Assembly (NCBI GenBank): GCA_046482545.1
Contig: JAWOEX010000021.1
Location: 1 to 64,000, forward strand
DNA from: Candidatus Thorarchaeota archaeon
GTDB lineage: Archaea; Asgardarchaeota; Thorarchaeia; Thorarchaeales; Thorarchaeaceae
Direction: 5' to 3'
DNA length: 64,000 nt
The notes under the pieces are model-generated. The model was not told where the DNA came from. It searched no databases and saw nothing but the letters and a program-made list of their open reading frames with translations. Every line of letters begins with the position of its first letter. Position 1 is the stretch's first letter. Position numbers and translations under genes: made by a program. Of this stretch, positions 44,361 through 50,900 are shown one piece after another.

Positions 44361-45143
44361 TCATTTGTTTCGCCATTGCTCGAAAATCGCCATGTACATG
44401 CACTCTTCTGGCGAAATCCACATTTTCGAGGAATCAAATGATTTGTCAACGAAAGTAACAGGGGCATCACGGATAAGAGCTGCAGGTACTGATTCATCAG
44501 ACTCCCCCATAACGGCAGTGCAAGCAGAAGCAAGGTTGTCCGCTACACCTCTACGGGTGATTCTCAGCTCATTTCCAAACAAATCCTTTCTACCTCTATC
44601 ATCAGCAACTGGTTCAAATCCTGCCACGGCCAATGCTATTCCAATATTTCCCAATCGTAGAGGCTGAGTTCTGCTATCAATCACAATCACACCAATTGTG
44701 ACACCACATTCTTTTCGAACCTGTTCTCGCAGAAGCTCTGCACTGTGACGGGAATTCTCGGGAAGCAAAGATGCATAACCTTTTGGCACGTTTGATTTAT
44801 CCACCCCAGCATTTGCCATGAGTGTGTTGTTCTTGAGGGTCAATAGAACATGAGGAATTCCACCCAAGATTTCGTCGGATTCCCTTACAACAAGCTCTGC
44901 AACCTCTGGCTGTATCGTATATCGGGATGCCAGTTCTCTTGCCTTTTCAGACACCTCGATATCAGCAAGAGAGACAACTTGGCCTTCTGTTGTTCCAAGG
45001 GGGGTCTCCGCTATGCCCAGTATATCATGATTCCTTATCTTGAGGTCCTGTTTCTCCAAACCCTCCAATAACGCTTCGAGGAAATCATCATTCTCAGAAA
45101 TGACCTTTGTTCTTATCGGAACCACTAACAAGGAAATCACCAT
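44361..45143 (-). CDS. cofE: Coenzyme F420:L-glutamate ligase family protein
   Basis: ANAGVDKSN, GVIVIDS, RGRKDLFGNELRIT, ADNLA, MGESDE. Confidence 0.9.
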   Translation of the reverse strand: MVISLLVVPIRTKVISENDDFLEALLEGLEKQDLKIRNHDILGIAETPLGTTEGQVVSLADIEVSEKARELASRYTIQPEVAELVVRESDEILGGIPHVLLTLKNNTLMANAGVDKSNVPKGYASLLPENSRHSAELLREQVRKECGVTIGVIVIDSRTQPLRLGNIGIALAVAGFEPVADDRGRKDLFGNELRITRRGVADNLASACTAVMGESDESVPAALIRDAPVTFVDKSFDSSKMWISPEECMYMAIFEQWRNK

Positions 45144-45191
45144 CAAGCTGAAAGAGCATACGTAACAAAATAAACTCTGCTGCAAGGAGAC

Positions 45192-46634
45192 CTACTGGAA
45201 GCCATCATTGGGTGGTTCTCGAGATTCTTTGTCATCCTTCTGTAACTTCATTCGTGCACCCATTATACAAGCATCACCCTTTCGCCCACCCATCGGATTG
45301 TGCCTTGTCCCCATGGAATTCATACATCTGGCTGCGACAGCTGCACCAAGTGCAAGTCCATCATCGACAACAAGCAAATCGTGATTCTCAATCCAGAGTT
45401 TTCCATCCGCAAGGTGCAAGGTGTCTGCCAGAAGCTTGGGCTTCATTTCTGTTACAATAGCCCTTCCTGTGACGCCCAGTGAAGTATCTGGCAAAATGAG
45501 ATTGTTGGCTTCAGCTACTTCCACAAGCCGCTGGACTAACCATACCTGGGTAGTATCAACCAATGCCATGAGGCCGGAGATTCCATTTTTGTCCATAGCC
45601 CCTTCACCAATACTACTGAGTTCATCCAATTGTGAGCCATTGACTCCCACATCAACCCCAATCAGAACCACATCACTCTGTCGCGCAGCAGTTGGATTCA
45701 CAGGAACTGTACCATAGCGTTCGATACCTTCAGGCACCACTTCAACGGTGATGAGTTCATGTACTTCTTCTGCATCCTGTTCCATTTCCGCATATTTCTC
45801 AGGTGTAGTACTCGGCAAGTCAAGAACACAGCCCCTCTGAGAGTCTACAGAAGGAACAACCCTCGCCAAGGAGTCAGGAATGGCACCAGCTAGACCAGCA
45901 AATGATCCAATAGTCTTTGCGTAGGGATACCGGTCATCGGTGGCCCTTCCAGCTAGAGTAGTTCCGAAGTCTAACGTCAATACAGGGTTTCTGAAATCAA
46001 TATCACAACTCTTAGCTGCGCCCTTGAGTCCGGCCGTTACTAGTTCACCTTCCATCTCGTTTGCCACTACTGATCCTTCCGATGGGGGGAGACAGCTTGC
46101 CACAGCACCATCGAAATATACTTTCTTCAACCAAGTAAAATCACATATCCCCGGTGGAAGGTTGTCTGGAGATAGCACAGCAGTCATTCTGTTCGTTGGA
46201 ACACCAGCGTCAACACATCCTTGAGCAAGTGCCTTGACCATCTCACCAACTTCTTCAGGCTTCGCAAAACCAGCAGTCACTCCGGTGGACCTTACAACAA
46301 AATGTAAATCCCGATCTAACCTAATCCTAGCCTTCTTGATTACACTCTTGAGCAATTCTGAGATGAATTCTTTCACAGAGTCGCGAGTCAAATCCACTCC
46401 TACTAGAGTTCTTCCAAATGTTTTTTCGCCATCATATGGTGCCCGTACATTACGAGTGAATCTGACTTCTTTCTTGATTTCAAAGATTTCAGCCGTATTC
46501 AGATTTGTACTCACCAAGATGCATTTGCTTGTGGTGTTACCCAGTTCTACTGATGCTACTGTATAGAAATCTCCCATACGAATTGAAGAGATAGTGGTGG
46601 AACGAGGTTTGACCCGCCTGAATTTTCCTGGCAT
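45192..46634 (-). CDS. Methanogenesis marker protein 14 homolog (ASKHA/actin-like ATPase fold)
   Basis: VASVELGNTT, FVVRSTGV, NEMEGEL, DFRNP, DFGTTLAG, GVTGRA, DDGLALGAAVAARCMNS; downstream of mtrH. Confidence 0.85.
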   Translation of the reverse strand: MPGKFRRVKPRSTTISSIRMGDFYTVASVELGNTTSKCILVSTNLNTAEIFEIKKEVRFTRNVRAPYDGEKTFGRTLVGVDLTRDSVKEFISELLKSVIKKARIRLDRDLHFVVRSTGVTAGFAKPEEVGEMVKALAQGCVDAGVPTNRMTAVLSPDNLPPGICDFTWLKKVYFDGAVASCLPPSEGSVVANEMEGELVTAGLKGAAKSCDIDFRNPVLTLDFGTTLAGRATDDRYPYAKTIGSFAGLAGAIPDSLARVVPSVDSQRGCVLDLPSTTPEKYAEMEQDAEEVHELITVEVVPEGIERYGTVPVNPTAARQSDVVLIGVDVGVNGSQLDELSSIGEGAMDKNGISGLMALVDTTQVWLVQRLVEVAEANNLILPDTSLGVTGRAIVTEMKPKLLADTLHLADGKLWIENHDLLVVDDGLALGAAVAARCMNSMGTRHNPMGGRKGDACIMGARMKLQKDDKESREPPNDGFQ

Positions 46635-46650
46635 CGGACGCACCTTCTGC

Positions 46651-49209: not shown

Positions 49210-49211
49210 TG

Positions 49212-50144
49212 CTAATCACCTTTCTTTGGTCGAGGATGAAGACCAGATTGTTTCACAAGTACAGGTATGCTTTCCTCCCATCCAACGCCCATGATGTGCA
49301 TGCCATTTACACCTTCGATTGTCCTAATGGTTTCTATGGTCTCCAGAGCCATTGCAATACCTTCCGATCTGACTGCATTTCGCTTCTCCTTCCCCCTAAG
49401 TCCATCTCCAGCATCTTCAAGCCGCTTAATCATCCTTTCGGGAATCTTGATACCTGGAATTTTGCGATTCATGAATCTGGCCATTCTCGGGCCCTTCAAC
49501 GGAATAATACCTGCGATTATCTTGATATCACGTATGTCAAGTTCATCCATGAATTCCCTGAAACGGTTTGTACCGTATATTGCTTGTGTCTGGAAGAAGC
49601 GAGCGCCAGCATCATGCTTCTTGCCCACCCTCCAAGCTTGTAATTCGAGAGGGTCGGCATAGGGGTTGAAAGTTGCACCAAGATAAAAATTGGGTGTACC
49701 TTCCAGCTTGTCATCTGCAAGATCTCTTCCGCTCATGAGATGACTTGCCAGCTGCAGAGCTTGAATTGAATCCAAATCATATACCATCTTAGCCTCAGGA
49801 TGTGAACCAAGCAATGAATGATCGCCGGTCATAAAGCAGACATTTCGAATGCCTAGGGCATATGCACCATACAACTCGCTTTCAAAGAGAATACGATTTC
49901 GATCTCGTGCTGACATCTGCATGACTGGTTCCACGCCACAGCCAAGAACAAAATGACTGCAAGCCATACTACTCATAGTTGGAATACCACGGACATTGTC
50001 GGTCAAATTCAGAACGTCACAGTAGTCCTTCACTCGCAACACCCGTTCTACCAAGAGCTTCTCGTCTGCACCATGTGGAGGACCAACTTCCGCAGTGACG
50101 ACAAATTTATCGTCTTGAAGTAATCTTTGGAGATATGTTTGCAC
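49212..50144 (-). CDS. metF: Methylenetetrahydrofolate reductase, flavin subunit
   Basis: VTAEVGPP, NLTDN, RDRNR, TGD, KHDAGARFFQTQ, IAGIIP, GMHIM. Confidence 0.92.
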   Translation of the reverse strand: MQTYLQRLLQDDKFVVTAEVGPPHGADEKLLVERVLRVKDYCDVLNLTDNVRGIPTMSSMACSHFVLGCGVEPVMQMSARDRNRILFESELYGAYALGIRNVCFMTGDHSLLGSHPEAKMVYDLDSIQALQLASHLMSGRDLADDKLEGTPNFYLGATFNPYADPLELQAWRVGKKHDAGARFFQTQAIYGTNRFREFMDELDIRDIKIIAGIIPLKGPRMARFMNRKIPGIKIPERMIKRLEDAGDGLRGKEKRNAVRSEGIAMALETIETIRTIEGVNGMHIMGVGWEESIPVLVKQSGLHPRPKKGD

Positions 50145-50231
50145 GAGGGTTCCTTTCTCCTTTCAAACGGTTTAAAGCAAAGAAACAAGGGGAACAGATA
50201 TTTGCTTTGGTCTTACGGGAAAATAAACCAA

Positions 50232-50900
50232 CTAGAAGAGGGTATCCTTTGCATCATGAACGATGTTTGTGGGACCCGCTGCCAAGCTCCAATCTTTCAT
50301 CTCCCAGATTCGTTTGATATTGTCAAGTTTGTCCAGCTTCTTCAACCGATCATAGATTAGCTGCCAGGCACATTCGGTATCATCATCTCTTTCGCACATA
50401 CCATCCATTGAGCCGCCACACGGACCATTGAGAAGGCCTTTGGCACAGCGAGTAATAGGACAGATTCCCCCAGTAAGATGTAGAACACATTCACCGCACA
50501 TGGAGCAGCGCTCATCATGATGAAATCGCTCAGGCATGGTTCCCAAGAAGTCCGAGTCAACCGCGGGGAGCGATTCTTTTTCTGGCACTATCTTGGTCAA
50601 ATTCTGTGTGGCAACACCACATGCTTGCACAAGAAATGCGTCAGCTTGTTCCAGCATTCGCTCATGTTTGTCCAATTCCTGTTTGGTAGCAAACTCGTCA
50701 CAAAGTCCGCCTTCGACAAACACGTATCCTAAGACATCTTTACCATGTTCGGTTAAGAAGTCGGTCATATCCTCCAGCTGGAGAATTCCACCTACGTCAC
50801 ACATTTGTGCACAACCGGAGTCACCAAAGAGGACTATCTTCTCGCAGCCTTCAAGCATCTCGAGGATGTCCTCCTTACTCTTAAGATCCATTACTATCAT
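50232..50900 (-). CDS. metV: MetV Fe-S/Zn subunit of MTHFR
   Basis: CSMCGECVL..TGGICP..RCAKGLLNGPCGG...C...CAW. Confidence 0.92.
   Translation of the reverse strand: MIVMDLKSKEDILEMLEGCEKIVLFGDSGCAQMCDVGGILQLEDMTDFLTEHGKDVLGYVFVEGGLCDEFATKQELDKHERMLEQADAFLVQACGVATQNLTKIVPEKESLPAVDSDFLGTMPERFHHDERCSMCGECVLHLTGGICPITRCAKGLLNGPCGGSMDGMCERDDDTECAWQLIYDRLKKLDKLDNIKRIWEMKDWSLAAGPTNIVHDAKDTLF

Follow-up and report, generated by a model that had tools for sequence, protein, structure and literature searches.

What do the corrinoid protein MtrA and the methyltransferase MtrH do in an archaeon that has no membrane-bound Mtr complex around them? The question is raised by a seven-gene locus, metV-metF-mtrH1-mtrA-mtrH2-mmp14-cofE, on contig JAWOEX010000021.1 (GCA_046482545.1) of a Candidatus Thorarchaeota archaeon, within a stretch of 64,000 nt (the window) of a Thorarchaeia genome that is 98.9% complete. 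The answer that we favor, with a probability of about 0.4 for the mechanism as a whole, is a self-tethered relay that would pass methyl groups between folate and a second methyl substrate without pumping ions; the architecture taken by itself is probable. The features on which this answer builds are, by position in the window:

50232..50900, minus strand: metV, the Fe-S/Zn partner of MetF (PF12225, E 6e-35)
49212..50144, minus strand: metF, methylene-tetrahydropterin reductase (PF02219)
48292..49209, minus strand: mtrH1, diverged MtrH paralog (PF02007, 246 bits; TIGR01114, 239 bits, under the cut-off of 271)
48904..48906, minus strand: codon of MtrH1 Glu102, which replaces the catalytic Asp102 of MtgA/MtrH
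48604..48606, minus strand: codon of MtrH1 Arg202, equivalent to M. mazei MtrH Arg211 by alignment to 9QTP
47581..48288, minus strand: mtrA (PF04208; PDB 5LAA/8Q3V), with a cobamide domain (~residues 10-167), a linker and a conserved soluble tail
48040..48042, minus strand: codon of MtrA His83, the cobalt ligand (His84 in methanogens; PMC4915002)
47680..47742, minus strand: MtrB-derived, predicted MtrH-docking hairpin in the MtrA tail (residues ~183-203)
46651..47580, minus strand: mtrH2, canonical-type MtrH (PF02007, 390 bits; TIGR01114, 407 bits, over the cut-off)
45192..46643, minus strand: mmp14, also DUF2114 or m26 (TIGR03285, 568 bits), putative ASKHA-fold ATPase and a candidate for loading or reactivating the cobamide of MtrA
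44361..45185, minus strand: cofE paralog (TIGR01916, 184 bits, cut-off 181), candidate pteroate/folate glutamyl ligase

An initial annotation of this DNA, made without database searches, had described seven co-directional genes with gaps of 0-3 nt from metF through both mtrH genes, and two distinct MtrH paralogs flanking one MtrA that keeps the cobalt-ligand His (EVPGH) and has no C-terminal transmembrane helix. This anatomy was borne out throughout. All seven open reading frames (ORFs) lie on the minus strand and were matched to their families by profiles; MtrH1 (H1) and MtrH2 (H2) share 35% identity; MtrA has His83, and its best 19-residue hydropathy is 0.96. The intergenic gaps measure 87 nt (metV-metF), 2 nt (metF-mtrH1), 3 nt (mtrH1-mtrA; 12 nt if mtrA starts at the ATG at 48279), 0 nt (mtrA-mtrH2), 7 nt (mtrH2-mmp14) and 6 nt (mmp14-cofE), the last counted from the first TTG of cofE, for which homologs point to the ATG at 45143 as the start. 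The genome holds one mtrA, two mtrH, one mmp14 and one metVF, every copy at this locus, and H1 and H2 are its only pterin methyltransferases. A read-through fusion of H1, MtrA and H2, which share one frame here, was considered and rejected: stop codons are present, and the frames vary among relatives, so the shared frame is a coincidence. The annotation had also seen no mtrBCDEFG or mcr genes in the window. Genome-wide searches extended this to the whole genome, which yielded no MtrC, MtrD or MtrE (PF04206; profiles from 10-11 methanogen sequences), no MtrB, MtrF or MtrG gene (profiles from methanogen sequences) and no McrA, leaving no full membrane Mtr elsewhere to which these subunits could belong. 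The absence needs amending in one respect, as the N-terminus of MtrB survives, fused to the MtrA tail.

The same arrangement recurs throughout the lineage. Gene inventories were taken from a family sample of 40 genomes of at least 90% completeness, and 40 relatives' loci were fetched for gene order. The mtrH1-mtrA-mtrH2-mmp14 core is unbroken in 39 of these 40 loci, so the gene order is not due to chance; metF immediately precedes mtrH1 in 35 (of the others, two are cut off by a contig end, two have no metF and one is broken), metV was found in 20 and cofE in all 40. Across the order, mmp14 is present in 80 of 87 genomes, and the named homologs of the operon proteins are mostly from Thorarchaeota. 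The flanks, with hflX, tgtA, larC and polB, are syntenic as well. In Methanobacteriales and Methanocella the full mtr operon ends with mtrH and then mmp14, so the Thorarchaeial core is a descendant of the methanogen mtr operon. The locus is thus real and family-wide, and it is in part already published: the passages retrieved from Adam et al. 2022 (PMC9635834) report canonical MtrAH together with marker m26 (DUF2114) in Thorarchaeia, without the other subunits, tie m26 to Mtr and propose a methyltransferase. Those passages contain no second MtrH, MtrB-derived tail, metVF/cofE linkage, m26 fold or lack of RFAP synthase, and they state that the lineages retain the Wood-Ljungdahl pathway, whereas CdhDE was found here to be missing from about half of the family sample, this genome among them. 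They also describe the genes as remnants of methanogenesis, and a decaying remnant without current function would accord with a single-contig relative of 77% completeness that keeps only a C-terminal scrap of mmp14 (L073, G059:C1:467000-486500; mtrH and mtrA absent at the site, possibly by natural loss or misassembly). We hold decay to be very improbable, because the frames are intact and the catalytic and docking residues invariant in 16 of 17 genera, and the novel tail of MtrA is conserved.

MtrA retains the His84/Glu54/GAIP(F/Y)xEN signature of the Mtr complex (PMC4915002), with His83 and Glu53 invariant in 40/40 sequences and a conserved GAIPYxEN consensus. The transmembrane anchor and the stalk of MtrB, MtrF and MtrG are missing; of these only the N-terminal hairpin of MtrB is found, on MtrA itself, where a conserved soluble tail of ~50 residues takes the position of the methanogen stalk helix. 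The sole Pfam match of the tail is MtrB (E 0.05 in this genome, 0.002 at best, 9 of 37 tails matching), and its top PDB match is the MtrB chain of 8Q3V (chain B, E 0.08), both weak when taken alone. A profile of the tail searched against 824 ORFs recovered all 10 methanogen MtrB sequences (E 6e-6 to 6e-3), the next unrelated match having E 0.46, and HHalign aligned the tail to the MtrB N-terminus over 22 columns with 97.1% probability. This MtrB segment is bound, in the M. mazei structure, at the interface of the MtrH dimer by the pairs Arg5-Asp5 and Glu9-Arg211 (MtrB and MtrH residues, respectively; PMC12774963). The tail retains the equivalent of MtrB Glu9, and its Pro187-Glu188 pair is invariant (Glu188 in 40/40). 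By sequence homology, then, the hairpin with which the MtrB N-terminus docks MtrH dimers is present in the MtrA tail, and MtrA would dock itself onto an MtrH dimer without a membrane stalk, which makes a single assembly likelier than could be known from the initial annotation. The second half of the tail (~205-235) is conserved and matches none of the sampled MtrB, MtrF and MtrG N-termini; as it is also unlike the first half, a tandem pair of MtrB motifs was discarded. Structure prediction of an H1-H2-MtrA tail complex scored 0.08 against a mark of 0.32, with the partner fold uncertain, and is evidence neither way.

The two MtrH paralogs are equally conserved (mean identity 65% for H1 vs 64% for H2) and differ in what they conserve. 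H2 carries the canonical MtrH residue set (T32, Q75, D103, N129, D196, H229 and N230 in M. mazei numbering), keeping T32, Y35, D102, N128, D195, H228 and N229, and H1 does not. At position 75, where Q, H and E occur across the paralogs, H2 of this genome has His, as do some methanogens, and H1 has Q. The H1 pocket has G32, F35, Q38 and E102 in 38-39 of 39 sequences (Q38 in 38/39; G32 and E102 invariant) and keeps N128, D187, H220 and N221 invariant. Conversely, the docking Arg211 equivalent is Arg in 39/39 H1 and 11/11 methanogen MtrH sequences and in 0/39 H2 (Ala, Ser or Gly), while at position 5 an acidic residue is found in 35/39 H2 and Lys in 36/39 H1. The presumed binding patch for the tetrahydromethanopterin (H4MPT) tail holds 2.4 basic residues in H2 vs 2.1 in methanogens, and 0.2 in H1. 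Such a split of ancestral features suggests a tethered H1-H2-MtrA complex, and it is the pattern expected if an asymmetric homodimer had become a heterodimer through gene duplication. In a quick MtrH tree with narrow methanogen sampling (the other trees were likewise quick or FastTree trees), both paralogs fall inside the methanogen MtrH clade (SH-aLRT 98), H2 as sister to methanogen MtrH with weaker support (86) and H1 on a long stem (1.53); neither groups with CmuB or other sampled D75-type relatives, in a sample that does not include MtgA. Neither paralog thus shows the Asp75 and the position outside the methanogen clade that mark MtgA and CmuB, and their NF047990 scores are far under the cut-off. 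The AlphaFold model of H1 (pLDDT 73 overall, poor in the C-terminal third) supports an MtrH/MtgA fold only.

The altered H1 pocket also lends itself to a different account, in which H1 serves for docking in a non-catalytic or regulatory capacity, H2 and MtrA perform one half-reaction on a single pterin carrier, and an enzyme in trans supplies or removes the methyl group. Four pocket residues of H1 are changed, including the catalytic Asp, on a stem branch of 1.53, and the docking Arg is kept; M. mazei MtrA is thought to be served by the proximal MtrH of the homodimer only; and other Asgard loci pair intact with degenerate MtrH-like genes. Partners in trans might be sought in an MtaA/CmuA-family thiol methyltransferase, an MttB/corrinoid system or, where present, CFeSP, and methyl-thiol export could serve as an electron sink. 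The genome encodes three MtaA/CmuA-like and two more distant UroD-family proteins, two corrinoid proteins, one MttB and, outside the operon, three separate RACo-like proteins. Nevertheless, the H1 pocket is intact and invariant rather than decayed, unlike the degenerate MtrH-like paralogs of other Asgards, and none of the 40 loci has a trans partner linked to the operon; we regard a docking-only H1 as somewhat unlikely. The clusters in other Asgard families (L163:7466-11660, L164:5137-14340, L165 and L179) hold two to three MtrH-like genes beside RACo and corrinoid genes, and one MtrH-like copy in them has lost pterin-binding residues (D102 to Y/N; N229 to R/V/I), making it a possible pseudo-enzyme partner.

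Which carriers could such a module serve? A search of the genome for the H4MPT and folate pathways, as proposed with the initial annotation, returned Mer and Mch, both past their cut-offs, and folate genes; Mtd, Ftr and CdhD/E were not found in this genome. RFAP synthase (MptG), the known methanopterin-building enzyme, was likewise not found, and it occurs in 1 of the 40 family genomes, with four archaeal controls positive. The gene set of an archaeal, H4MPT-dependent Wood-Ljungdahl pathway is therefore incomplete here, and scavenging of the carrier or a non-orthologous enzyme is possible. Family-wide, Mer is present in 18 genomes, Mtd in 28, CdhDE in 19 and MetV in 19; 12 cdh-positive genomes have no mer, and five genomes (92-97% complete) without mer, mtd and cdh still hold mtrA, mtrH, mmp14 and metV. 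If H1 were only a docking subunit, the patchiness of mer (18/40) and mtd (28/40), and the lack of mer in 12 cdh-positive genomes, would follow from redundancy on a single carrier. The initial annotation had instead proposed that one MtrH loads and the other unloads the same corrinoid, bridging the folate and methanopterin branches of the Wood-Ljungdahl pathway. Its soluble corrinoid shuttle without Na+ pumping is supported, as a module derived from Mtr in which a single corrinoid protein meets two MtrH pockets, each conserved and unlike the other; the bridging role is not supported, in a genome without CdhD/E, Mtd, Ftr and RFAP synthase, and the missing methanopterin-building enzyme makes the bridge doubtful in itself. 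Transmethylation between tetrahydrofolate (H4folate) and H4MPT would require that the cell either takes up H4MPT from methanogens or makes it by a pathway not yet recognised. Mer and Mch beside Fhs and FolD, the H4MPT-tail patch retained by H2 and lost by H1, the position of mtrH1 next to metF, and the 12 cdh-positive genomes without mer, in which a shuttle of MetF-made methyl-H4folate could feed CdhE, all agree with it. The distribution of RFAP synthase, the gaps in this genome, the five genomes that retain the module without mer, mtd and cdh, and the Q75 of H1 within the methanogen clade, away from D75-type folate enzymes, argue against it, and we find this exchange rather doubtful. The other option of the initial annotation, an unknown methyl donor, is close to our best reading.

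Anabolic use would take methyl from methyl-folate through MtrA to a core methionine synthase. It draws on the metF linkage, on retention of the module whatever the Wood-Ljungdahl status, and on the published prediction that MesA takes methyl from MtrA in methanogens (PMC7857596). The MetE/MesA core domain PF01717 was found in 0/41 genomes (MesC lies outside the reach of this search, the M. acetivorans control being negative) and the MetH-type homocysteine domain PF02574 in 0/26, and a profile seeded with MtaA/UroD gave five proteins, all MtaA/UroD-like; such a supply route is improbable. Neither of these synthases nor an Mcr or CdhDE sink was found in this genome, which is consistent with the relay that we prefer.

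The folate side is complete or close to universal. FolP scores over its cut-off, an adjoining gene resembles MptE by sequence reading with no family match, and the genome also has an MptA/FolE2-type cyclohydrolase, Fhs (39/40 family genomes), FolD, FtcD and GcvT; fhs, folD and ftcD cluster next to a RuBisCO-like gene (G000:C22 ~73,400-79,100, L191). FolC was found in 0/26 genomes. Of the two CofE paralogs, that of the operon scores lower on TIGR01916 (184 bits, against 260 bits for the one on contig C14), and a CofE homolog, CT611, replaces FolC in Chlamydia (PMC1971073). With folC absent, folP present and an additional CofE paralog at hand, the operon CofE may replace the missing FolC, an activity predicted from sequence; it differs from the Chlamydia case in scoring 109 bits on TIGR04132, far under the cut-off of 350. 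Two further patterns in the C1 genes were observed. In the 40 genomes metV and cdhDE are nearly exclusive (metV only in 18, cdhDE only in 18, both in 1, neither in 3), and MetF is more variable in genomes without metV. Patchy Mtd and Mer, together with the counts for RFAP synthase (1/40) and FolC (0/26), may mean that Thorarchaeial C1 carrier chemistry departs from the usual, perhaps with both enzyme sets sharing a single folate-type carrier.

Mmp14 may add an energy-dependent step. Its AlphaFold2 model (pLDDT 82, pTM 0.85) has an ASKHA fold, the actin/sugar-kinase fold with phosphate-1 and phosphate-2 loops; the corresponding motifs, E33-x-G35-N-T-T and D225-F-G-T-T, are kept in at least 97% of 86 Thorarchaeial and methanogen sequences. 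VIA Z scores of 17.7 to 12 link the model to kinases, benzoyl-CoA reductase, FtsA, Kae1, the HadI activator and diol-dehydratase reactivase, and Foldseek matches it to RACo 3ZYY (E 2.6e-6), one among many ASKHA proteins. The fold leaves the function unproven, because matches to kinases, FtsA and Kae1 are equal or better. No solved structure is related to Mmp14 by sequence, and no hidden Markov model for RamA/AcsV, EutA or an Fe-S domain matched it; its nearest Atlas clusters, own family excluded, are all EutA (0.83), a weak lead to EutA-type B12 reactivases. The tie to MtrA, the lack of a detected Fe-S domain and the three separate RACo-like genes elsewhere lead to our best guess from the model, an ATP-driven cobamide loader or exchanger for MtrA.

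Put together, the locus would encode a soluble, streamlined descendant of the methanogen mtr operon. MtrA would bear the cobamide and be docked by its MtrB-derived hairpin on an H1-H2 heterodimer, and the ~20-residue linker would let the cobamide domain visit two pockets. One pocket would exchange methyl with the cell's own folate-type carrier, made with FolP and probably glutamylated by the operon CofE; the other would serve a second methyl substrate, probably pterin-like and other than methanopterin of the cell's own making. Ions would not be pumped, and the likeliest net direction is methyl entry. In lineages without CODH/ACS, as here, methyl-folate would be oxidised by MetVF and then by FolD/Fhs to formate, with ATP gained at Fhs; in lineages with CODH/ACS the methyl would go to acetyl-CoA synthase. 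Mmp14 would spend ATP to load, exchange or reactivate the cobamide of MtrA. Stated at its boldest, Thorarchaeia would have turned the methanogen ion pump into a soluble swinging-arm transmethylase whose heterodimer pockets accept different pterin-like carriers, one of them undescribed, with Mmp14 as an ATP-dependent cobamide chaperone or reactivase; we advance this version only tentatively.

Several points weigh against the relay. Asp102 is essential in MtgA, where D102A is inactive (PMC7154762), so Glu102 may cripple catalysis by H1. The tail has no counterpart of MtrB Arg5, an acidic residue 5 is common too in relatives that bind no MtrB, and Asp5 and Arg211 may belong to one protomer or to two. 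The second substrate lacks any identified candidate, and oxidation of methyl-folate needs a suitable electron acceptor, none of which was identified. The metV/cdh pattern reduces to ~2 informative independent pairs after kinship (sign test p 0.5), and the synteny of the flanks makes the linkage of cofE, like that of larC, weak evidence.

Compared with known systems, the locus corresponds by sequence to the MtrH-MtrA half of Mtr and is not a member of the Na+-pumping complex. It shares with MtrABCDEFGH (PDB 9QTS, 8Q3V; PMC12774963, PMC10998594) the MtrA cobamide domain, the MtrH fold with its pterin residues (in H2), the MtrB hairpin and the mtrH-mmp14 adjacency; it differs in having no MtrCDEFG, membrane anchor or Mcr, a hairpin shifted to MtrA, and two MtrH paralogs in place of a homodimer. 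The methylcorrinoid:H4folate methyltransferases MtgA (Desulfitobacterium) and CmuB (Methylorubrum) have the same fold and provide soluble methyl entry into folate, and cmuB directly follows metF; unlike H1 and H2 they have Asp75, and they work with corrinoid proteins of another family and with a first methyltransferase that is specific for its substrate. For an anchor-less MtrA, Methanosarcina mtxXAH is presumably a likeness. Cytoplasmic MtrA homologues (PMC4915002) also lack the anchor but have 170-180 aa, compared with ~230 aa, a docking tail and a sole MtrA in the genome here. The MtrA-MtrH fusions of Atabeyarchaeia and Freyarchaeia (PMC11291895) are non-methanogenic Asgard MtrA/MtrH without the membrane part, the fusion being analogous to tethering; here mtrA and mtrH are separate genes. 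Mmp14 resembles the ASKHA B12 helpers, the reactivases EutA/DdrA and the activators RACo/RamA, in fold and phosphate-loop motifs, and differs from EutA, RamA and AcsV in having no sequence-family match and no detected Fe-S domain.

Four features were absent from the literature searched: the MtrB-derived tail, the split of features between the paralogs, the ASKHA fold of marker 14 and a CofE in place of FolC. As a model of the half-reaction between MtrH and MtrA, the system is small, soluble and expressible. It suggests a function, open to experiment, for methanogenesis marker 14, the companion of Mtr in methanogens, and it bears on the role of "MtrAH remnants" in non-methanogenic archaea. H4MPT-type pathway reconstructions of Thorarchaeia may be wrong, given the absence of RFAP synthase in 39/40 genomes and of CODH/ACS in about half.

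Salt-lake metatranscriptomes gave scattered low-depth contigs on the operon and its flanks alike, possibly from DNA carry-over, and a sigma-70 promoter scan, with a model ill-suited to archaea, stayed at chance level. A radical SAM gene at C26:68.8 kb, considered as a pterin methylase, scores as the tetraether synthase Tes and was dropped. Elsewhere in this genome, which has no Mcr, MtaA-like, corrinoid protein and MtaA-like genes adjoin hdrABC-like genes (G000:C9 ~3,000-12,500, L188), and an MttB-family methyltransferase, a corrinoid protein and a transporter-like gene lie together with MtaA-like and RACo-like genes nearby and no pterin methyltransferase at the locus (G000:C2 ~21,500-32,600, L187). 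Genes for proteins of 600-780 aa that start with a signal-like sequence and end in a membrane anchor recur just upstream of metF, sometimes between metV and metF, in six relatives' loci (L051, L053, L064, L065, L069 and L070). Downstream lies larC (42810-44177, minus strand), which encodes a nickel insertase containing an acidic linker; it comes after cofE in almost every locus and has no evident tie to the methyl module. The plus strand at 40223-42820 has a small ORF and, after it, a gene for a family B DNA polymerase whose exonuclease domain is matched weakly; this arrangement is syntenic family-wide. Two Rab-like small GTPases and a WD40-like repeat protein (35635-36189, 36208-37371 and 38740-39309), judged by sequence, are typical Asgard eukaryotic-signature genes.

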